Source: Botryllus schlosseri (Eukaryota). From it: 64,000 nt of DNA. The stretch is taken from the NCBI GenBank assembly GCA_051294905.1, contig CM119371.1, positions 15,874,001-15,938,000 of the forward strand, in the 5' to 3' direction. Made by a program: the position numbers and the translations under genes. Below, one piece after another: positions 2,433 to 51,525 of the stretch; positions within the stretch are counted from its first letter, which is position 1; every line of letters starts with the position of its first letter. Below the pieces are notes generated by a model. It was given only the letters and a program-made list of their open reading frames with translations. It searched no databases and was not told where the DNA came from.

Positions 2433-2599
2433 CCCAGGCATGTCTGGCAAGTGAGGCTACAAATTATTTCATGATAGGCTTGCTTGTTCAGAATATTGTA
2501 AGGTATCGATTGACAATAATGACCTGTGACTGTCGTATCGTCGATTTCAGCCTTGAAGTATTGTAGCAATAGAATCGATTGTAAAGTGTTGACTTTGAG

Positions 2600-4216
2600 A
2601 TGAAGATCGCTTACAAAACATCCAAAACTCACGGTGGCTGTCTGTTGCCAAAATTGAGAGCCAACGAGGAGTTTTCCGACGTCACAATAAGATGCGGACG
2701 TATCGAAGTTATGGCTCATAAATGCGTGCTGACCGCATCCACGGAATATTTTAGAGGGATGTTCTCGAACGACACTTACGAAGCCAACACCGGAATTATT
2801 GACTTCTCTTCCGCAATGACTCCTGAGGTGATGAGGCAATGCGTCGACTTCATTTATTTGGGAGCCGTGGAGATCTCTGCGTCAATAGCAAGAGGACTAC
2901 TTGATGCTGCGGAAATGCTGCAGTTGCCGGAACTGTCTAAACTGTGCGTCGAATTTCTGGCCGAAAACATAGATCTGACAACGTTTCCGGAAGTGATCAA
3001 CTTGTCCCGTCTGTATGATAAGAATGCTTTGAATGAGCCGATACTGAGCTTCCTTGATGACAATATAAAAATGCTTGTGAAGTCTCGCCGTATCGCGTCG
3101 CTCGATTACGAAACGATGGGTTATTGTTACGATTTGTTGCAACGCGCGTCTAAATCGTACGAGGTCTGGAAATGGTTCGGGTTGTTGATTTGGACACAAG
3201 GCAATCTCGAAGAAAGAAAGAACAAGTTTCCTGATCTGTTTCTAAAAATCGATCTACAGCGCATACCAGCGGCAACGGTGAAAAAGCATATTTGTCCAGA
3301 GAATTTAATTGATGGCTCGCTGAAATGCCTTCAACACATCCGCAGTTTCTTCGCAGGCAAGCAACCTCGCACTGAAAACAGAATATCGCCGATGAGTCAC
3401 ATCACTTCGATTAATAAAGCTACGAAAGTAGTTTATCAATACGATTTGCGCAATGAGATTTGGAGTAAGGCAGGCGAAATGCCAGCAACTGTTAGTCTAC
3501 ATTGCCAGGCAGTGGAATATCGCGGCATTCTGTATATTGGCGACAGTTCGTCTTTGCACGCCTTCAATGGGACGAAGTGGACCCGCCTGGCAGTAACGTC
3601 GGAAGACCCAAGTCACGATAGCGTGATGCAGTACAACCAGATTATTTGCACGGGACAGTTTGTGATATTGATCACCATTCGTTGCACTGTGCTATGGAAT
3701 ATTGAGTCTATGGAATTGCAAGAGGTGAATCACGAAAATATGAGGCTTACGAATGGATTTTTCGTTGCGTGCGATAAAAAGTCTGTTTACGTTTTGGGCG
3801 GAAGGGAAAGATACAATGATGCGAATGAACGCAATTCTGTTTCAAGAATGCTATTGCATGAGAAGAAGTATTCGCAATATCCGTCGATGATCAAGGGCAG
3901 AGCGTACGGGGCAGGCATTTGGTACAAGGATTTTCTGTACGCTCTCGGAGGTGTCACGTGTACAGTTGAATTCCTAAACGAAGACACAAGACAATGGCAG
4001 ATTTTGAATAATCTGGAAATACAATGTCGGCATGTCAAAGCGCACCTTGCCGACAAGTTGTATATTTTTGGCGGCGTGTTGGGGACTGATGTTAAAACTG
4101 TTGATCTACGTCAGCTGGATATCCCCGCGAAAGAGCTTCAACCCTCAAAGCGTAGTGCTGGCGATATGGAAGCGTGCTGCGCGTCGTATACCAAGTATAT
4201 CAAACTTTCCAAATAA
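2600..4216 (+). CDS. BTB-BACK-Kelch (kelch-like) protein, 538 aa, no introns in the CDS
   Basis: BTB motif FSDVTI...AHKCVLTASTEYFRGMFS...CVDFIYLG...AAEMLQL, a BACK-like region (LLIWTQGNLEERK...IDL), and Kelch-like repeats (VYVLGG, LYALGG, LYIFGG). Colinear with the paralogue at 59725-61335. Confidence 0.93.
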   Translation: MKIAYKTSKTHGGCLLPKLRANEEFSDVTIRCGRIEVMAHKCVLTASTEYFRGMFSNDTYEANTGIIDFSSAMTPEVMRQCVDFIYLGAVEISASIARGLLDAAEMLQLPELSKLCVEFLAENIDLTTFPEVINLSRLYDKNALNEPILSFLDDNIKMLVKSRRIASLDYETMGYCYDLLQRASKSYEVWKWFGLLIWTQGNLEERKNKFPDLFLKIDLQRIPAATVKKHICPENLIDGSLKCLQHIRSFFAGKQPRTENRISPMSHITSINKATKVVYQYDLRNEIWSKAGEMPATVSLHCQAVEYRGILYIGDSSSLHAFNGTKWTRLAVTSEDPSHDSVMQYNQIICTGQFVILITIRCTVLWNIESMELQEVNHENMRLTNGFFVACDKKSVYVLGGRERYNDANERNSVSRMLLHEKKYSQYPSMIKGRAYGAGIWYKDFLYALGGVTCTVEFLNEDTRQWQILNNLEIQCRHVKAHLADKLYIFGGVLGTDVKTVDLRQLDIPAKELQPSKRSAGDMEACCASYTKYIKLSK

Positions 4217-4739
4217 TGAGTATTTTCCAGTGCTTGAATCATGTATTTTTCGATGCCAAAGTTATAACGTGTAGCAGTAGCAGCACCACAAACGATAGCG
4301 ACATTGATGGTTAAGATTAGATAGTTCGGTGACGTGTAAATCAGGATTTGTCAGGTTCCGAAAGTAGGCGCGAACCAGCGTTTCAATGGAACCATGGTGT
4401 CCAGGTAAATAAGCTGTCAGCTACAAACTGGTTGGTTGGGATGCGTTAGTGGACAAAGAGGCACTGAGAGTTGAAAGTGAATCCAAATTGTAGGTCTTTT
4501 GGGGCAGATTTTATTTTTATTTTCTTCACTTTCTCCGCACTTCCCGCGTATAGTCCGTATTTGGCCCGCGGGCCGTAAAATGCCCAGGTCTGCCCTACGC
4601 TAATCTACAAGCCTTCGAGGAACCCCTAATATTCAGTGAGTCACAAAACAAAAGTCCACATGTGTGCATACCATATGTGTTATAATCTGTAGGACTACCA
4701 GTAAAGCTAGGCAGTCAGACTTGTACAAAATACCCATTT

Positions 4740-4950
4740 AGTTAGTTGATGGTCAACTAACTAACGGTTTTTTGAGTAGTTCTAGTTCTAGTCGCTGATT
4801 TTAAAAATTGAGTAGTTCTAGTTGTGGTTTTGAAAATTGGGTAGTTCTATATCTAGTTGCGGATTTTGAAAATCGGATAGTTCTAGTTCTAGCTGCGAGT
4901 TTCAAAAATTGAGTAGTTCTAGTTGCACATTTTGAAAATCCAGCAGTTTG
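4740..4950. repeat. (TAGTTC)n-rich array, probably a MITE subterminal remnant
   Basis: Units such as TTTTAAAAATTGAGTAGTTCTAGTT repeat. A related TAATTC/TAATC array lies at 14940-15170. Confidence 0.6.
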
Positions 4951-5621
4951 TACAAATCTGACTACAAAGTGATATGATATGTCAGAAAGATACTCAAGTA
5001 GTTGCACAAGGTAGATTTGGTCGACACGTTCTACAGTGTTAGGATGACTCGAGTCATGACTTGAGTCACTTTTTTCGTATGACTTGACTTGACTCGAGTC
5101 ACTTTGCTCAAATGACTTGACTTGACTTGACTCATCGCATCAGAAATGTGGATTGACTCGTGACTCGGAGCAAACTTCACGAGTCAATTTCAAGTCACCA
5201 AGCAATAGATGTCGATAAAATCACAGTATTTAGAATAAGCTTGGATTGTTCACGAAACGCTGGTGTAACCCGTGAGAGCGACCAATCATTCAATGATGGT
5301 ACGTTTTACTGAGCCTCCATTGTTCTCTTATAAATATATTGACCGTAAACGAAGTGATCGAAGCTAACAGCTTACGTTCTTGTTTTATTGAAATTGAATA
5401 TGAATATAGTTTATATAGCCCTCAACCATGGCGCAGGCTCGAATTGTATCATATCATATCAATTTGTAAATGGGTAATGTATTGCATCTTATCAATTCGT
5501 TTCTCTATGCTCTATTTTGGCTGGTAACTATAAACTGAGGCTATGCAATTGCTTACGTAGATTAACATTTCTACGTAGGCTATATGTGAGTGATACAGCG
5601 CCTTCTTGTACATTCAACTCT

Positions 5622-6769
5622 TAAATAGTATATTCATATTGAAATGAACCCGAATATTTTCGGCTGACACTCGTCAGGGGTAATCGTCAGCAACTAGTAG
5701 AGAATTGGAAAGAACATTGTATATCAACAATCGTATCACAAAATATGACGTCACCAGCATGAAATTTCGAATGAGAGAGCGTTCAATGTACTATTTTTAG
5801 GTGATACACGAACTCCTTTTGTTGACAGAGTTTTGGTTGGTGTATTTTGATAAAAGTTGATTCCAAGGCACACAAATGGAATTGTGAACGGCCTCGGCCT
5901 ACGATTCGGAATCGGTCGTCTCGATAATTATTCGCACAAATCGGATTATCCAACAGATGTTTGCCGATGGCAGAATTAATGGCTTTTGATCGATCAGCAT
6001 CAATCTTGAGTGGATGAGTTAAGGGTGAGCTTTTCACATCGCGTGACGCACGTGTTCTGATAAATCTGGGGACATGTTGGTTTATGCGGTCCTGCAGACG
6101 TCTTGACGTTCTTCCCACGTAGCCACAATCACAGTGGCACCTATATTCGTACACTACATTACTTTGTTGAAGTGCAGGAAGCACGTCTTTGCGTGTTGAA
6201 GGGAGCAGTTGTGTTGTTGTAAAAATCACATTGGTTTTGACTGTATCGTAACATTTACCGACAGCAGAAATCAATTGTTTTTCAAAGCGGGTGGAAATGG
6301 GGCCAATCCAAGGTAGATGGATATAAACATCTTTTATTGTTCGTGCGGTGGGCTCTGTTCGTTTTTCTGCGTTGAATTGCGTTAATTTCCTCTCCATGCC
6401 GCGGCTGATGACGTGTTCAGGGTAACCGTTATCAAGTAAGATTTTTCGGATGTAGTCAAGTTCTAAACTCAGTTTGTTACCCGAACATATCATCAGCGCT
6501 CTATGCACGAGTGTGCCTATGAGGTTAATTTTTCTGCGCCGAGGACTAAATGAATTCCAGCGAAGGTATTGGCCAGTGAATGTCGGTTTTCTGAAAACAG
6601 ACGTTTCAAATTTGTTGGTATTGCGCTTTTCAACTAATACGTCCAGAAATGATAATGAGTTATTGCGTTCTTTTTCTATTGTGAATTGCAAGGCCGGGTG
6701 AAGCGAGTTTAAGCGAATGAGAAATTGGTCACACTCCGATTCATTCCTGAAAATGACAAATGTATCATC
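5622..6769 (-). mobile_element. 5'-truncated Penelope-like retroelement
   Basis: Encodes the RT C-terminus plus a GIY-YIG domain and has a hammerhead motif in its 3' end. Flanked by a 13-bp direct repeat TACATTCAACTCT (5609-5621 and 6770-6782). Confidence 0.92.
5648..5691 (-). ncRNA. Minimal type I hammerhead ribozyme (Penelope-associated)
   Basis: The minus strand reads GCUGACGAUU-ACCC-CUGACGA-G-UGUCAGC-C-GAAA-AUAU-UC^GGGU. It has the canonical core CUGAnGA/GAAA/UH, stem I ACCC:GGGU and palindromic stem III AAUAUU. Confidence 0.8.
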
Positions 6770-6774
6770 TACAT
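5783..6774 (-). CDS. Penelope-like RT C-terminus/thumb plus GIY-YIG endonuclease (5'-truncated, open frame)
   Basis: Motifs VDDTFVIF, LNSLHPALQFTIEKE, LSFLDV, FRKPTFTGQYL, NGYP, and the GIY-YIG segment NVVYEYRCHCDCGYVGRTSRRLQDRINQH. The first ~16 aa of the ORF-track ORF come from the host MITE and TSD. Confidence 0.9.
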
Positions 6775-7819
6775 TCAACTCTATAATCGTACATCTGTTC
6801 AGAATCAATGACCACTTCATCTGTATTTCAAACAGCTATCAAAATGCAATGACATAAGCATGCCTCAAACTTCGAAAAGGCAACTTGACTTGAATTGTGA
6901 CTTGACTCGTGACTTGACTTGACTTGACTCGAGTCACCTTCGAAAATCGACTGACTTGACTTGACTCGAGTCAAAATGTGCAATGACTCGAAATGACTCG
7001 TGACTCGAAGGTAGTGACTTGATCCCAACTCTGACGTTCTATACATGTCGCGTGAATCAGAGGTGGCCAATTTAAAATCGAAGCTGTTGGATCGCGACTA
7101 ACACAGAATGACTTCCCGATACGCGACCCGGTACCCGTTATCGGTAGGCTGTTTCTATCTGGTTACTTCGTCCCTGCGTAGCAACAGAAGATATATCAAC
7201 ATCTCGAGTTTGTATGGTGTCAGGGTAATTGCCGTGTAGCTGTAGTGTAGAGATAAGACTGTTGGACAGGACAGTCATGAAATGAGATGCTATGTCAGTT
7301 TGGTGCTATGTGAGTTCGTCTCGAGGGCGTCGATCGTTTTGCTGTTCTCAAATCATGGAAGGACGCACCGCGCAGCATATTGTCTATCATGTGCAGTGAG
7401 ATGAATATAGGATCTCAGATAGCCGGAGATCAGCAAAATTATATTCTCGGCAGGATAATACTGAGCCGACTAGGTAATTTCAATTTCACGCGGACTTTCA
7501 AACTTGTGCTAGTGTAATAGGCCTACAAGAAGAAATTATTACGAACACACGGGTTCAACCTGTGTATCGCTAAAGTGCATCGCACTAGCTCAGTGGTTCT
7601 CAACCTTTTAGACCTCGCGGCCACCCGTTCAATGGGAAATAGCTCGCGGCACCCTAAACTGCTTAGTGCAGGGCCGGCCAACCCGTGGCCCGCGGGCCAA
7701 ATGTGGCCCGCGAGAAGGTTTTGATGGCCCGCGAGGTAATTTCCATAATTTCTAATATCATCAAAAATGGATTGCACAAATTGTGAACTTGCAAGGACAA
7801 CCAAAAATTTGATTAGTCT

Positions 7820-8293
7820 GGACTTGACTCGAGTCAATCTGTGTATTGACTCGACTTGGACTAGCATGACTCGAACCAAGTCATATGACTCGAGACTCAG
7901 ACGGCCAATACCAACATTTCATTGTAATTTCGAAGAATAGTAAAGTAACCACCCTATTGGGATTTCTTCTATTGGTATGGTACTTGAAAATGCGACCATA
8001 AACTGTTAAAAGTGAGGAAAATTAGTATATTATAAACGCGAATCATTCTATGACACCGAACAGAGTTATATAATTGGGTTTAACAAGACTTGGAACTGGA
8101 AACTGAGCAATCAACACGATGACTCAGACTCGGCGAGTCATAATACCATGACTCGGACTCGAACCTCTGCTCGATGACTTGGACTCGGACTTGACTCGGT
8201 GGTGATTGAGAATGACTCGACTTGACTCGAGTCAAAACTATGAAAGTGAGATTGACTTGTGACTCGGAGTCTTGTGACTTGGTTACAACCCTG
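7820..8293. mobile_element. GACTCGAGTC-family MITE, right part (end ...GGTTACAACCCTG)
   Basis: GACTC/GAGTC motif arrays, colinear with the element starting at 20690. Used as the reference for the split host in the inversion. Confidence 0.7.
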
Positions 8294-8612
8294 TTTTCTA
8301 CAAGCTTCGCGCAACATGTTGTCACTCGATTTCTTGTTTTTAATATTGTTGCCCCTTTGTGAAAATGAAAGAACGCCTAATGTATCAGATTGAGTCTAAC
8401 TATATTCGCGATTACGAGACAAAGTATCGTTCAACATATGCGACCTTGCGTTTGCGCTCGCAGTAAGACCGTCGACTTTGAAACCTAGGCACAAAACGAT
8501 TGACGCATTTCCTATACCCAAGTGTTGGAGGTTTATCTAGTCCCCTCCTCGCCACCTCATCCGCGTAAGCGGTGTCTTTCAAAAAGCCTAGAAGTGGGCC
8601 GTGCTATACGTC

Positions 8613-9430
8613 TAGGGTTACCATATTTTTGAAATCCAAATTCCGGACGCTCTTTATCGCCCACTAGCGGATTCCGAAATGAGGTATGAGCACATTGTGG
8701 ATCAATATGACGTTACGCTAGCAAAGCTTTGTCTATCGACTAGAGGTGGCCACGATCCGGTGCAAGAGTATGTGATTGTGTGTTGTAGGCTGTAACCAGG
8801 GCCGAAGCCACATTTTTCAGCCTCCTCCCGCCCAAATAAACACTGATCTTGCGCTTAATATATGGCTTATGCAAATACATATGGTTTCTATATGCATCAG
8901 GTCGTTAAATGATTTGAATGAATTATGTCAATAATATTGGTTCTTCCATATATTACTATATAATTTGATCCTCTCTCCGCCCATATGATCAGAGTTAGCG
9001 GTAGAGCAGGCGGAGGATGATGAATTCGAAAATGCAAGGAGCGTAATTGTACATCGTTAAGTCATGTCCAAACGGCCTAAACCGACTTTATGAACATACC
9101 GTTATCTTGAAATTGCGATAACAATTAGACTCATTTCTGTAACTGAAAGTTAATTTTGTTTATTTTTGATCGCAGTTTTGCGAGGGTGGTAGTCGATCTC
9201 CACCTTTAAACCAATATACATGATACTAAATCGCGCGCAGCGCGAATAAAATTTTCATGTAGCATAAATCTGCCCGAAAATAATACTGTTTATCTTGATT
9301 TAAGAAGAATTATGAGCTTATACTTCAAAATTCCGGACATTTAGGCATATTTTAGAAATTCCTCCCGGACGCAGTTTTAACAGTGAAATTCCGGACATGT
9401 CCGGGAAATTCCGGACGTATGGCAACCCTA
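8613..9430. mobile_element. Non-autonomous hAT (Blackjack/Tip100-like TIR TAGGGTT(A/G)CCATA)
   Basis: TIRs are TAGGGTTACCATA and TATGGCAACCCTA, with CCGGAC subterminal motifs. Direct repeat TGCTATACGTC (11 bp) at 8602-8612 and 9431-9441. Confidence 0.9.
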
Positions 9431-9863
9431 TGCTATACGTCGGCAGTTACGGAATATAAATGAAGAATATCGGCCTGGTGTAAATGACCAATGACCATAG
9501 TAGTCGACAAACACCAGTGGCGGCTCGTCCTATAGGGCAACTGGGGCATTGCCCCACCTAAAATTCTGTTCAATAACAGTTCTTTACCATAGACGCACAG
9601 CAATCTATATATACCGAAATCACAGCAAAAATCGTATTCTTCTTGTCCTTTCACTTGTAAATGCCCATATATATAGCGAAGTCTCTGCGAAAATCGAATT
9701 CTCTTCGTGTTTTCGCTTTGCAAATGCCTAGCCGGGGCATGCCCCGGTAGCGCTCATAACAAGCTTTCACTGTCTATTCTCTCAAAGCTGCGCACAATAA
9801 AGAAACAGTGATTTACTCTCTCCTATTCATAAAATGACCGAGCAACCGGGGCAACATAGCCTA

Positions 9864-11241
9864 GGGGAGACCGGGGACAAATGTAACTAGGGGCAAATGT
9901 AACAATCGACCTCACCGCTAGTAGGATGGAGAAATCAGCTTGATATTTTAAGTGCGCATGCAGTAGTTATCTCTCCTATTATACCTGGAGTTACGTTGAG
10001 CTACGATGCGAAACCCCGGAATAATTTGCAAAAAACGAAATTTTTGACCCTCGAGTAAAGTTTTTCTGGTCTGGAATAATTTGTCTAGACGAATAGTACC
10101 TCAAGCAGTTACAACGTGATATGTGTAGCTGGAACAATGTTACTATAGTCTACCGTGGTGATGGAAAGAATAGGACTCGCATCGCCGGGAATGTACCATA
10201 CTGAGACACTAATCATGGTCGAGCGTGTCAGGGGCAATCGTAACACTCTGTTACTTTTGCCCCGTTACAATATGTTATCAATTCTGAATGTCTTTGTTCA
10301 TATGTTGGTATTACCATTCATCTACTGCAGAATAATCTTGCAACAGCCAGAAGTTCACCAGAACAGATACTGCCTTGCGATACCAATTCTAACATGATCA
10401 TCTGTCGAAACGGCCATACAATAGTGGTGATGTGAATCTGACGGTTCGGTTATTTTCGTGATTCAACCACCCTTTCTCATGTTGATCGACTTTTGGTGTG
10501 TCGAACTTCAATAGTCATGGCTTAATTCTCGTCCTCTGACTTTGATCATGGCCCACTTACATTTTGATATTTGATGTGAACAATTTATGTTAATTTCCTA
10601 CAGCACAGATAAATATCATTATAGCTTTGACGCCAGAAAATGTTGCGTACTCGTTTTACTATATACCATCATCGGCCCATTCAACCAAGATATGTTAGCC
10701 AGGTCGGTTTCGCACCTTCGCAGGTGACCGAATGACCAAGCCATTATGCCCGCTGAACAACAGAACCTTGGTAGAAGAGGCCGAATATGTGTAGGGAGAT
10801 GATGGAATGAATGTGTCTCTTGTACACTTTAAGCTTGAACAAGACACGAAGGGTGATATTGCATTCAGAGGCCATAAATGCGATGGGGCGCAGCCTGTAA
10901 GCGTTCAAACGTCTTTTCGTTTAGTTTCATGCAATATTACAATTTGTGCTTCCGTTTTCGTTGTTCATTTAGTTCGTGTTTAGTTTTAAATAACACTGTT
11001 ACATTTGCCCCGCAAGGGTGGTACAATTGCCCCTGGGTACGGGGCGATTGTAACATTTGAGCAGCGATTTTTGCGACCCAAAATTTCCATGATTGATTGT
11101 TGATTGAGTTCCAATTTAGTTTTCATATCAACTATCGAGTTGTTGGCTTCTTTATATAAAACTTTGGAAGTGAAATTTTTACGAGAAAAACACGTAGTGT
11201 TGGAAAATACGAAAAGTGTTACAATTGTCCCCGGTCTCCCC
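9864..11241. mobile_element. Tc1/pogo-like non-autonomous element nested in the 9515 element
   Basis: TIRs are GGGGAGACCGGGGACAAATGTAAC and GTTACAATTGTCCCCGGTCTCCCC, with TA on both sides. Confidence 0.85.
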
Positions 11242-11329
11242 TACTCGCCCTTAAGGTGTGATGTAACAATCGTATCTACATCTGAACTCGGTTACCGTCA
11301 TATGCGTTTAGTCGACCTTTGCTGGTATA

Positions 11330-11990
11330 GGTCGATTTTGATGGTGTTTCACAGCATGATAATTCTTGAAACTTGGTATGTCATGTCGTGATGGTGGTAT
11401 TTAACATTGTCCCAAGTTTCAGGGTTTCTACTTAAAGTTTAGGGTAGTAATTCCGTTTCCGAAGTTGAGTGTGTGCTGATTCGTCATGTATCGCAAACAG
11501 ATTTTACTCAAAAGCCGGTATTGGTATCCATTGATTTTGACGATGTTCCATACCGAGATCGGTCATGACATTTGGTACGGTAAGTCTTAATGTTAGTATT
11601 CAACGCGGTACCAAGTTTCAAGTTTGTCACTGTACTGTGTTAGTGGTAATTTCGTTTCCTAAATCGAGTGAGAGCTGACTCGTCATTTATCGCAAACATA
11701 TTTTACGCAAAGCCGGTATTGGTCTCCATTGATTTTAACGATGCTCCTTACCTAGATCCGTCATGAGCTTTTGCATGGCATGTCTTGATTTTAGTATCGA
11801 ACGCTGTGCCAAGTCTCACGGTTGGCACTCAATGATTAGGGCAGCAATTTCGTTATCAAGGTCGAGATGTTAAAGATGTGCGCTGATCTGACACTTAGCC
11901 TACCTAACGCATTGCGGATTTCACGCAAAAGTCGGCGTATCTGTGTTAACGCTAACTGTGTTCCATACTGAGATAAGTGATGAGATGATG
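11330..11990. repeat. Diverged ~198-bp tandem repeat (about 3 units)
   Basis: AAAGCCGGTATTGGT occurs at 11511 and 11709. CCAAGT(T/C)TCA and TCGTCAT(G/T)TATCGCAAACA motifs recur at the same spacing. Confidence 0.7.
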
Positions 11991-13575
11991 ATATCATGAA
12001 ACAGTTTACTAGCATCCTCGGTTTGCATTCAAATATTTACTTTTATTTTATATTCTCCAATGTCAATTTTGACCGTGAAATTGTGGCCTTCAGGCCATTT
12101 GCTTACAATTACAACCCCTGTCAAGCGCGATAGCTGTTTCGTTTTCGATGGCGGCTAACAGCTGATCGCTTGATCAATGATCAGCCTATTCCTCAGTAAA
12201 TTTTACGCAAAATTCGGTGTTGGTCTGTTTGTATTAATTTTGACAGTGTACCATACCGAAAACGGTCATGAGGCTACTTCTCGTTGATTTCATGTAACAG
12301 TGTACCAAGTTTTCGGCTTTCATCCACGTATTTATTCGGTAATATATTTTCCAAATGCGATTTTGCAGCAGACATATAGACCGTAAGCCGTATGTGTCGT
12401 GTGACAGCCTCCAGCACCAAGGCCAAAACTTCTCCTATGCTGTATCGGGACCGAATTTCCGAGGCTGCTATCCGTAGTTCTTCAGAATTATGTTTTGGAT
12501 TCAATATGACATTGTCCAATCTATGAGATAACAATTGCGTGTGTCCGAACTCGTTGACCTTTCCAGCTAGGCTTACGCAATCTCTCGAGTTATAGTCATT
12601 TCCATTTCTGCAGATAATTAGTCAAGTCAGGTATAGTGCGAACATGAGCCGTGTGAAATCTTTGTTCCGTACGCCGTTTACGCAGTTACCACACTTCAAG
12701 TCACAGCTCACCGGCAGACCTCTCGCGGCACATACGTTAAATCACTGTTGTCGGGAAGTTCGTGTTACCGTAGTTCGTACCACTAAGTTACTTGTTTACG
12801 TTGGAAAACTCCATTGTGACGTCATCTTGATAAAAAGTCGCTTGCAGCCCTTGCCCCACCACCCGATATTGTCACGAGCCGCCACTGACAAACACCATGA
12901 ATGCCTCAAAACCAACCAACCAATTTACGCATGTTGGTCGCAGCTTTCGATATCGATATGTCCCGGCGCCGAATAGCCGAGTCCTCGCAAATTTAGCCCA
13001 GCGAAATACAGCAGGCCCGCAATATAGTCAAGTGACAATATTATTGACCTATGAACTTCAAAAAATTTTCGCGCTTAGCGCGGCTTGTGGCCCACGCAAT
13101 AGTTCGTCAATCGAATGTGGCCCTTTGGCTGCAAAGGTTGGCCAGCCCTGGCTTAGTGCTTACACTGAGTGGCGATGTAACGTAGTTGTACGTTGCATCG
13201 CTGAAACACAAATGGGTCGCGGGTTCAAGTCTGATGAGGTATACTCCAGATGCTTTGTCAGTCTGATGCTATGTGAGTGTAAGTTCGTCTCGCAGGCTTC
13301 CTTCGATCGTTTTGTTGTTCTCAAATCATGGAAGGACGCACCATGCAGCATATAGTGTCTCTATATCTAAACATTTCATTTTCTATACTTCCATTTCTAA
13401 TTGAAATTGAGTACACATTTTCGGCATTACTTCCACTTGAATAATCATAATAATCGATAGACTGTCAAGCCGCCATCGCAGACTGTCAATCCACCATAGC
13501 ATTGCTTACATTACACCGTACGTACGATGATATCATAGTAGAGTAATTGTGACAAATAATAACCATGCTTTAGTA

Positions 13576-17885: not shown

Positions 17886-18403
17886 GTGTAGCCTATCTAT
17901 ATTATTTGTTGGCTTTTGTTTTTATTAGGTCATGCAACAAATTATTTCATATGTTGGAAATTTGAATCATCGTATTACTGAAGTTACGGTCTAAAACACT
18001 GGTTCCAAACCTTTTTGGATGTCGGAGCCTTCTTTCAAACTCTGGAGTACGTATGGGGTCGCAAGTAAACACTCACGGGTTACGTATAACCATGATTTGA
18101 AGGTCGCTAGACTACCTCTGGATCTCACCATCCAGCTAATTCAAAAGCATGCACTTAGACTCCTACAGATTCTATATCAGTTATTTTAACATTGATAGAC
18201 GCAGATAGCTCTTCTTACATTCAAGCACCTGATGCACAAGTTGAAGGGGGATTATACGCTGAGTAATACTGGTAATATTGCAATTTATGCTTGACTATGA
18301 GCCGTTACGTTGATGTCAGTAAAGTTGTGTCGCAATTTACTGTTCACAGAGACGACCTATGAACGTCTCTGACCAGCATAACTCAAGATACCGGTATATC
18401 ATT

Positions 18404-19311
18404 CAGTGTTGGGATCAAGTCACTACCTTCGAGTCACGAGTCATTTCGAGTCATTGCACATTTTGACTCGAGTGAAGTCAAGACAATCGATTTTCAAAGG
18501 TGACTCGAGTCAAGTCAAGTCACTCGATTTTTGGAGGTGACTCGAGTCAAGTCGAGTCAAGTCGAGTCAAGTCGAGTCAAGTCACGAGTCAAGTCACATT
18601 TCAAGTCAAGTTGCCCTTTCGAAGTATTAGGCATGCTTAGGACATGGCATTTTGCTAGCTGTCTGAAATAGCCTACAGATGAGTATGGTCATTGATTTTG
18701 AACCGATGAACGAATATAAGTATAATTGCATAGCCCCGGTTTATATAGTTGCCAGCCAAAATAGAGAATGAGAAAAGAATTGATAAGATGCAATACATTA
18801 CCCAGTTATAAATTGATGTGTCACAATTCGAGCCTGCGCCAATAGTTGAGGACGATATAAACTATATTCAAATTCAATTTCAATAAAACAAGAGGTTTGG
18901 TTAAGGTAAGAACAGAGAACAGAAATATACATTTTGCGATTAGATTACTTTACTATGCTTGTTTACTATACAACGTAAGGTAAGCTGTATGCTTCGATCA
19001 ATTCGATTGCGGTCAATATATTTGTGAGATAACAATGGAGGCCCAGTAAAACGCACGATCATTAAATGATTGGTCGCTCTCACGGGTTACACCAGCGTTT
19101 GGCTGGCGAACAATCCGAACATATGCAAGATACAGTGATTTTTATCGACACCGATTATACTTGATGACTTGAAATTGACTCGTGCATTTTGCTTCGAGTC
19201 ACGAGTCAATCCACATTTCTGATGCGCCAAGTCAAGTCAAGTCATTTTAGCAAAGTGACTCGAGTCAAGTCAAGTCATACGAAAAAGGTGACTCGAGTCA
19301 TCCCAACACTG
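18404..19311. mobile_element. GACTCGAGTC-family hAT MITE, complete
   Basis: TIRs are CAGTGTTGGGAT and ATCCCAACACTG. TSD ATATCATT/ATATCATC matches 7 of 8. Confidence 0.9.
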
Positions 19312-35396: not shown

Positions 35397-36137
35397 CTTT
35401 ACTAAGGGTTTCTACGTTCAACATGCATCCAGAGTTCAAAGAAGTTGTTGACAACTTTGATCGAACAAGCCATCTGCGGTACAGAACTTCAGAACAACGT
35501 GAAAGAATAACTTCATATTGTTAATTTATTCGCTAAAAGCTTTTCGGCTGACACTCATCAGTAGCGAACGTCAGTAATAGGGTGAAACAAATTCGAAATG
35601 TAGGAACTATTTCGTCTGTATTACGTAATAATAACATAAACAAAGCTAGTAGACAGGCGAGATACGGTAGTAACGATACAAAACAAACGTTAACGAGTAC
35701 ATATTCGGTTATAAATAACCGGAGATAACAACACAAAATATTAATGAAATATTCCAAGAGTGTAGAGGCGCTCCTTCTGGCGACAGAGAATCGGCTTTCG
35801 CAGCTTTATGATTGTAGACTTCAGGACCTTCAAATGAAAAAGAGAACGACCACGAACAACTATAGAAAATGGACTGTCATTGTAATGATTAGCACATTCT
35901 GGATGGGATAAGAGATGCTGTCCGATAGCCGAATGACAACTAGTAACTTGATCATAATCAAGCAGTGTTTTAACAGACTGGGATGATGGAGTTGAAGAAA
36001 CATTACTTATTCAAATTTGCCGTGGGACATGTTGGGGAATTCTTTGCTGCAAGCGCTGAGACGTGCGAATTACATACGGACTATCGCATCGGCACTTGTA
36101 CCCATGTCCGGCCTGTCAACTGGAGAAGTTGCCCGCC

Positions 36138-51051: not shown

Positions 51052-51525
51052 GGAAGTTCAAGCCGTCTCCGATGCTAAATCAGCATGTCCCTAGATTCAT
51101 TAGAGCACGCTCGGTGAAAAGCTCACCCTTAACTCGTCCGCTCAAGAATGATGCGGAACAACCAAAGGCCATAAAGTCTGCAATTAGCAGACACTTGTTG
51201 GATAATCCCGCATGTGCGAAAAATTATCGAGACGACAGATTTCGCATAGTCGGAAAGGGTCGTTCACACTTTCATTTGTGTGCCTTGGAGTCGACTTTGA
51301 TCAAAATACACCAGCCAAGGCTGTGCCAACAAAAGGAGTTCGTGTATCATCTAAAAATAGTACATCGAACGCTCTCGTATTCGACATTTCATGCTGGTGA
51401 CGTCATATTTTGTGCTACGAGTGTTGATATACACTGTTCTTTTCAATTCTCTACTAGTTGCTGACGATTACGCCTGACGAGTGTCAGCCGAAAATATTCG
51501 GGTTCATTTCAACATGAATATACTA
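51052..51525 (+). mobile_element. Heavily 5'-truncated Penelope-like copy
   Basis: NQHVPRFIR...AISRHLLDNPACAKNYRDDRFRIVGKG...LESTLIKIHQPRLCQQKEFVYHLKIVH matches the C-terminus of the 5783 ORF. The stop TGA is mutated to CGA and the 3' UTR is the same. Confidence 0.92.
51460..51503 (+). ncRNA. Minimal hammerhead ribozyme, copy 2
   Basis: Reads GCTGACGATT-ACGC-CTGACGA-GTGTCAGCC-GAAA-ATAT-TC^GGGT. The core is identical to copy 1, with one G.G mismatch in stem I. Confidence 0.72.

Follow-up and report, generated by a model that had tools for sequence, protein, structure and literature searches.

A compact type I hammerhead motif with a predicted six-pair knot in a Penelope-like element of Botryllus schlosseri

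How might a hammerhead ribozyme operate with a stem II of a single base pair? The question is raised by a short motif in a 64,000-nt stretch of Botryllus schlosseri DNA (contig CM119371.1 of assembly GCA_051294905.1; hereafter the window, whose coordinates are used throughout). The initial annotation described a minimal hammerhead near the 3' end of a Penelope-like element, with a palindromic stem III and a 6-bp pairing between loop II and sequence just upstream of stem I. We recovered the motif sequence exactly as written there, 44 bases at 5691-5648 on the minus strand. Our preferred reading, to which we assign a probability of about 0.7, is that this is a compact type I hammerhead with a six-pair knot, whose cleavage after C5652 likely requires that two copies pair via stem III.

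The motif lies in an element referred to here as copy A, which has the following parts and borders.

5622..6769, minus strand: copy A, a 5'-truncated Penelope-like element, recognized by its ORF remnant, flanking duplication and RT plus GIY-YIG protein relatives
5783..6769, minus strand: open ORF remnant with the C-terminal part of the RT, the thumb and a GIY-YIG endonuclease with CxC..H..H
5622..5637, minus strand: first bases of the element's ORF, which recur in the 3' pLTR and break off at the element end
6770..6782, no strand: target-site duplication, 5' side, 13 bp
5609..5621, no strand: target-site duplication, 3' side, 13 bp

The 13-bp duplication bounds the insertion, so copy A is a 5'-truncated element of ~1.15 kb that extends from a short 3' end back to a point inside the RT active-site motif. 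A protein search with the ORF remnant returned 637 matches, annotated with RVT_1 and GIY-YIG domains, and RVT_1 was detected in full-length relatives; Pfam gave no match on the window's ORF remnant. The endonuclease CCHH residues (C12, C14, H33, and H72) are invariant among 19 aligned sequences, and the linker between RT and endonuclease, inspected by eye in the ORF translation, is without a CX2-5CxxC zinc finger. Penelope/Poseidon elements are defined, in the available part of PMC8557442, by an RT with a GIY-YIG endonuclease, carrying CCHH, at the C terminus and by the lack of a CX2-5CxxC finger in the linker. By these domain criteria copy A fits a Penelope/Poseidon-type EN+ Penelope-like element.

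The motif is held in the 3' pLTR, which adjoins the endonuclease coding end. Likeness between copy A and a second copy in the window (copy B, below) stops at 5626, 26-30 nt beyond the predicted cut site, in agreement with the ~30 nt originally proposed for the distance from the site to the element end. Other genomic copies continue into a longer tail (copy B; loose read ends at 5624-5629), and an optional longer tail is known for Penelope-like elements (PMC11167929). An uninterrupted BTB-kelch ORF of 543 aa is encoded at 2585-4216 on the plus strand, ~1.4 kb from the insertion. At the 5' end of copy A (6782-7034) is a dispersed repeat with short CAAGT/GAGT units, distinct from the element, which recurs at about 5080-5170, 7818-7875, 8210-8293, 18403-18718, and 19192-19277; the Penelope copy is inserted at the edge of this repeat.

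From 5' to 3' on the minus strand, the motif has the following parts.

5686..5691, minus strand: predicted pseudoknot leader strand, GCUGAC
between 5686 and 5681, minus strand: linker GAUU between leader and stem I
5678..5681, minus strand: stem I, 5' strand, ACCC
5671..5677, minus strand: catalytic core C3-A9, CUGACGA
5662..5670, minus strand: one-pair stem II, G10.1 (5670)-C11.1 (5662), with a 7-nt loop; G-C in 10 of 10 family rows (below)
5663..5669, minus strand: loop II, with unpaired U 5669 and then the leader-pairing GUCAGC (5668-5663)
5652..5661, minus strand: G12-A14 GAA (5661-5659), palindromic stem III AAUAUU (5658-5653), and C17 (5652)
5648..5651, minus strand: stem I, 3' strand, GGGU

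The type I core elements CUGAnGA, GAAA, and UH are present in order, and the predicted scissile bond lies between 5652 and 5651. Stem I is open-ended, with four Watson-Crick pairs in copy A. The compact-core pattern has three matches in the window versus an average of 0 in 100 shuffles, and all three lie directly behind the coding end of a Penelope-type endonuclease, so the motif is not attributable to chance. The full core, the pLTR position, and the endonuclease ORF with its relatives bear out the earlier identification of a type I hammerhead in a Penelope-like element. The Rfam check that had been suggested for it, run on 3000-12000 of the window and on eight related loci, matched no hammerhead family up to E 10. 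Similarly, the published descriptor for minimal hammerheads (min-HHRs; PMC4209133) matched 0 of 79 related loci and nothing in the window.

Two further Penelope-like 3' ends, each with the motif, were identified in the window, and no target duplication was found for either.

51075..51525, plus strand: copy B, same family as copy A (85% identical), with the same knot and a longer tail
35520..36106, minus strand: copy C, a second family with a broken endonuclease (51% identical) and its core at 35561-35555

Stem I of copy B is broken by one change. Copy C has a longer stem I, the palindrome AAGCUU, and five of the six knot pairs. Additional relatives were fetched by endonuclease protein similarity only, yielding 79 metagenome-assembly loci (L numbers below) from the best 80 of 375, and we infer that these loci are host-animal DNA. 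They were first scanned without any pairing rule, and the same build was seen in several families. For covariation analysis we used 10 rows, each standing for one family: two rows come from the window and eight are fetched loci, and all are hand-picked representatives. The endonucleases of the 10 families are 41-61% identical, except for L002 and L003 (81%). Left out of these rows were near-identical copies of the L004 and L017 families, L026 and L125 (both with the hexamers of L004), and copy B. L125, which was fetched later than the others, also has six of six knot pairs. In full-length L002 and L003 the motif is present in the 5' pLTR.

A strict parse was passed by 52 of the 79 loci, with 57 instances, of which one (L001, minus strand) is probably spurious. 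All six knot pairs are present in 45 of the 57, most from one family. Among the 27 loci that failed, some lie at contig ends, some are truncated or mutated, and others hold true motifs in which stem I is bulged or the A run is longer (L003, L017, L018, and L021); no motif was found in the stretch inspected of L054, L078, or L079. Protein scans identified no relative on viral contigs and, among prokaryote genome contigs, two short contigs with relatives, one carrying a degenerate-core motif; both are presumably host contamination. Ten loci (L010, L015, L029, L030, L032, L035, L038, L056, L058, and L064) carry a second, opposite-strand motif upstream of the endonuclease. In these loci there is an inverted 5'-truncated copy typical of such elements, which gives two motifs of opposite polarity per insertion.

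Across the 10 rows, core positions G5, A6, A9, G10.1, C11.1, and G12-A15.1 are invariant and H17 is never G, and stem I has 4-8 contiguous pairs in eight rows and is bulged or mismatched in L003 and L050. In 40 of the 57 census instances the core has U3.G8, not the canonical pair; in the largest family (L004; e.g., L007 3571 and L008 1165) most copies have U3.G8 and some C3-G8, and L001 (1310) has a compensated U3-A8 core pair. A CUGACGA that also occurs upstream in copy A, at 5690-5684, was rejected as the true core, as it is not kept in copy C, L006, L050, L002, or L003.

The six-pair helix between leader and loop II is marked by covariation. The leader/loop hexamers of the 10 rows are GCUGAC/GUCAGC, ACUGAC/GUCAGC, UCUGAC/GUCAGA (two rows), UCCGAC/GUCGGA, UGACGC/GCGUCA, GGCUAG/CUAGCC, UCCAGU/GCUGGA, UCUAGC/GCUAGA, and UGCAUU/AAUGCU. 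Six pairs form in eight rows and five in two, and seven different hexamer pairs are fully paired. In the alignment of leader with loop II, 95.6% of 68 cells are paired, with double-sided changes at all six knot pairs (18 such cells). The covariation score is 0.737 versus 0.244 +/- 0.054 for shuffled alignments and was reached by 0 of 500 shuffles, whereas slid leader registers all score at most 0.184. The leader register of this alignment (A3) was set by hand, and related sequences can beat the shuffle control.

Because the register was chosen by hand, register-independent tests were added. In a swap test with fixed rules (the last six loop bases, a leader ending 6-11 nt before C3, and Watson-Crick pairs only), a row's own leader fits its own loop in 7 of 10 rows, versus 3 of 90 for foreign leaders. 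All three foreign fits share an identical loop hexamer, and the per-position background is 0-0.8%. With G-U pairs allowed, the counts are 8 of 10 and 7 of 90. A pattern scan of viral contigs (44 loci, 29 unique core-pattern matches) was used only as a control: six Watson-Crick leader pairs occur in 0 of the 29 unique matches and six including G-U in 2, and none of the 44 loci combines a stem I of at least 4 bp with a leader helix of at least 5. Compensatory changes at every one of the six pairs across 10 families, together with the swap test, substantiate the 6-bp pairing that the initial annotation had proposed from a single copy.

Loop II can also pair with the core, and this pairing could instead be its main role: an off-switch, with the leader acting as a decoy that frees loop II or being a by-product of core duplication. 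In copy A the leader GCUGACGA repeats the core CUGACGA, and in 7 of 10 rows four to six of six core:loop pairs can be drawn. At minimum energy, copy A folds into three inactive hairpins (-12.2 kcal/mol), one of which pairs loop II with the core, and copy C is likewise inactive, with loop II paired to the core. However, as a conserved helix the core:loop II pairing was rejected: only 64.4% of cells are paired, and its score was reached by 177 of 500 shuffles. Its energy is near zero in L006, L050, L002, and L003, the leaders of which are unlike the core, and in all 10 rows loop II pairs more stably with the leader than with the core. We consider an off-switch very improbable.

The alignments support a six-pair leader:loop II helix that replaces helix II and is conserved across families. 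In 9 of 10 rows the arrangement is the same: one unpaired base, six pairs, and a linker of 0-5 nt. Because the leader runs in the same direction as the 5' strand that helix II lacks, the knot would stack on G10.1-C11.1, with one base crossing the helix and the linker tying the top of the knot to the end of stem I. In this way the knot would hold stem I alongside, supplying the helix I-II contact that speeds hammerheads.

Several known hammerheads share parts of this build. Perreault et al. 2011 report, in the available part of PMC3088659, that ~40% of hammerheads use a pseudoknot between stems I and II. One of their tested examples has, like copy A, a 1-bp stem II and a 6-bp knot; it cleaves at >1.2 per min, and breaking the knot leads to loss of activity, with the rate down by orders of magnitude (PMC3088659). 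This example is a metagenome type II hammerhead, unlike the type I motif here; the repeat-associated eukaryotic type I motifs in the same study have a weak palindromic stem III, which the available text does not join with a knot (PMC3088659). The PK hammerhead of Zhan et al. 2024 (PDB 8YDC; PMC11300833) is similar in that its crystal structure has a single G10.1-C11.1 pair and a six-pair pseudoknot, formed with 5' sequence, in place of helix II. In that structure the knot does what we propose for it here. As described in the available part of that paper, the 5' strand there forms the loop of an additional 5-bp helix (helix IV), which the ribozyme needs and which comes with an A-minor triplex linker; noncanonical pairs make up two of the six (PMC11300833), whereas all six are canonical here. 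Our motif also differs in the absence of a conserved helix IV, the linker of 0-5 nt, the dimer-type palindromic stem III, and its location in an animal retroelement. As a candidate in our alignment, helix IV was rejected, with at most two pairs in 8 of 10 rows and three or four, half of them G-U, in the other two.

The min-HHRs of Cervera and De la Pena 2014 (PMC4209133) resemble the motif in other respects. As far as the available part of that paper describes them, they are type I, are located in pLTRs, and have a short stem I, G10.1-C11.1, a palindromic 15.2-16.2, predicted dimer cleavage, and occasionally a U3-A8 core. They differ from the motif here, which has one pair and no extra base: a local helix II, never shorter than 3 bp, is present in all 56 motifs of their Fig. 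S3, most of which carry an extra base after A9; no pseudoknot is described in the available text (PMC4209133). According to the accessible portion of a 2017 review, Penelope min-HHRs lack tertiary interactions (PMC6155905). Hammerheads in the 5' UTRs of chryso- and fusariviruses (PMC13725137) are also type I, with a helix II of 0-2 bp and a cut a few bases before an ORF, and their cleavage has been linked to cap-independent translation. They differ in being viral, monomeric, and slow, with a long helix III, and are reported to lack loop-loop contacts (PMC13725137).

The motif would work like both a dimer-type Penelope hammerhead and a PK hammerhead. Judged by sequence, it is a full member of neither the Penelope min-HHR nor the PK hammerhead description, because its helix II falls below the 3-bp minimum of the min-HHR descriptor and the PK helix IV is absent. 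Luense, Weinberg and Breaker reportedly described in 2017 small hammerhead variants with a diminished stem III, Penelope association, and dimer cleavage, the last of which is predicted here. In the literature searched we found no description of a knot combined with a dimer-type Penelope hammerhead, and the alignments of Luense et al. may contain the variant.

The segment A15.1-U16.1 reads AAUAUU, AAGCUU, or AACGUU in 8 of 10 rows; in the L017 family the palindrome is longer and its A run varies, and in L072 it is imperfect. A two-base loop cannot close a hairpin, and the palindrome changes between families yet stays a palindrome. These features uphold the palindromic stem III first noted for copy A and point to pairing between two copies. 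Such pairing has been shown for other Penelope hammerheads, which have a dimer requirement (PMC4209133). It is conceivable, at a very low probability in our judgment, that the knot allows a monomer to be active, stem III then being reduced to A15.1-U16.1 over a 4-nt loop. Such a one-pair stem and loop can be drawn, and hammerheads of the PK type are fast (PMC3088659, PMC11300833). Nevertheless, the central two bases remain self-complementary through UA, GC, and CG, a pattern that only intermolecular pairing explains.

Dimerization also bears on the knot itself. The AAUAUU duplex is very weak (-0.2 kcal/mol), and the motif is predicted to dimerize anyway, so the six pairs might form in trans, between the leader of one dimer partner and loop II of the other, with no intramolecular pseudoknot. 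Covariation would be the same for pairing in cis and in trans. On the other hand, the unpaired base, six pairs, and 0-5 nt linker of 9 of 10 rows match the intramolecular geometry of the solved PK hammerhead, and we regard the trans arrangement as improbable. We retain the intramolecular knot with stem III as the contact between two copies.

Potential promoter elements precede the leader.

5718..5723, minus strand: weak TATA-like box, TATACA, 32 nt upstream of the pseudoknot leader

Nine of 13 rows (six with a canonical box and three with TATACA, including copy A) have a TATA-like box at 30-35 nt before the leader, against a shuffled background of 0.2-5% per row, and CCAAT boxes occur upstream of it in several rows. 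Given this spacing, the motif is probably the structure with which the transcript opens and functionally its 5' end, and we infer that transcription starts a few nt before 5691. A palindromic TGACGTCA is present in the pLTR of copy A (5746-5753, minus strand), and TTATTACGTAAT is shared ~55 nt before the leader by copy C, L002, and L003, three TATA-less families; both resemble bZIP factor sites. The four rows without a TATA-like box have AT-rich stretches that may be introns. Upstream of the motif, the pLTRs of L002, L003, L050, and L072 are long and AT-rich, and their polypyrimidine-AG ends fall within or close to the leader and stem I. These stretches are possibly introns, the removal of which would change the ribozyme, by analogy with D. 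virilis Penelope, for which intron removal altering the ribozyme has been reported (PMC4209133).

On the other side of the motif, the ORF AUG of copy A is at 5637-5635 (minus strand), 14 nt 3' of the predicted cut, and across families an AUG follows the cut by 3-52 nt (offsets corrected for H17). In relatives, the peptide after this AUG matches the N-terminus of full-length RT ORFs, for example the 847-aa RT ORF of L002. We propose that transcription beginning a few bases before the leader would give a full-length tandem transcript with one motif at each end. Pairing of the two end motifs via stem III would lead to cutting and a unit-length RNA that starts, with a 5'-OH, 14 nt before the AUG and ends in a cyclic phosphate. 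This uncapped RNA could circularize (the model of PMC4209133), whereas uncut RNA would remain a template for insertion. Copy A, being solo and truncated, lacks a cis partner; unless it pairs with another transcript, it is probably inert. The RNA from which it was copied extended 26-30 nt beyond the site and must have been uncut or religated.

Two RNA runs under the same species label cover the family of copy A heavily, on both strands, over 5623-5770. At 5772 many reads pass from the element into a different sequence that they have in common, a possible non-autonomous subfamily, and in one run 394 of 6869 reads have a one-base insertion in loop II at 5669. No pile-up of molecule starts or ends was found at the site in ~6% and 3% of the respective runs, a weak test, as these are ordinary cDNA libraries with reads from many embedded copies.

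The inactive lowest-energy folds of copies A and C, the weak stem III duplex, and the frequent U3.G8 core also weigh against cleavage. The read result, together with the prevalence of U3.G8, would be compatible with a motif that adopts the drawn fold but serves to bind protein or depends on protein, cleaving little alone. The anole Penelope element requires its own protein for cleavage, can insert in vitro without cleavage, and has no RNA-seq reads ending at the site (PMC11167929); published min-HHRs are slow in vitro (PMC4209133). We nonetheless give this possibility a small chance, as the invariant core positions, an H17 that is never G, and the compensated U3-A8 pair of L001 point to selection on catalysis. 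The dimer-dependent ribozyme remains our preferred reading.

Three families have a further structure between the cut site and the AUG, where the Rfam histone 3' UTR stem-loop (RF00032) matches with 27-33 bits, just below the gathering score of 34 (E 2.9e-6 to 4.4e-4).

L003 296-340, plus strand: histone-like stem-loop (RF00032)
L006 1319-1365, plus strand: histone-like stem-loop (RF00032)
L002 152-198, plus strand: histone-like stem-loop (RF00032)

Rfam identified no such stem-loop in the window's families. Among the three loci there is one compensatory pair change, and the stem-loop is followed by ACCCA or ACCAA and then, just before the AUG, by an AGAG-containing purine run, which may be a histone downstream element. 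A similar hairpin occurs inside coding sequence (L006 1385-1420 and L026 453), and for this reason the histone-like stem-loop may be of chance or duplication origin. No histone stem-loop in Penelope-like elements was found in the literature searched.

Penelope hammerheads have been described as stripped-down and slow, without helix I-II contact, and their purpose is open. The motif described here is a variant that spans families and has a tertiary helix backed by covariation. Since neither the published descriptor nor Rfam detects it, invertebrate genomes probably contain more ribozymes than have been counted. Clean mutants are possible, in which the six pairs or the palindrome are broken and restored. 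With these one could ask how fast a Penelope ribozyme is, whether it is gated by dimerization, and whether a cut near the AUG controls translation or circularization. A 44-nt ribozyme with two inputs would also be a handy engineering scaffold.

A broader proposition, which we consider unlikely, is that transcripts of an animal Penelope clade begin with the smallest natural pseudoknotted hammerhead. If true, a fast, dimer-gated enzyme would remove the capped first 40-45 nt and leave an RNA with a 5'-OH, its start 3-52 nt ahead of the AUG. By cutting, the enzyme would then switch the RNA between an insertion template (uncut) and a cap-independent message or a circle; a histone-type stem-loop between cut and AUG, present in three families, would there bring the histone mRNA machinery to the uncapped message.
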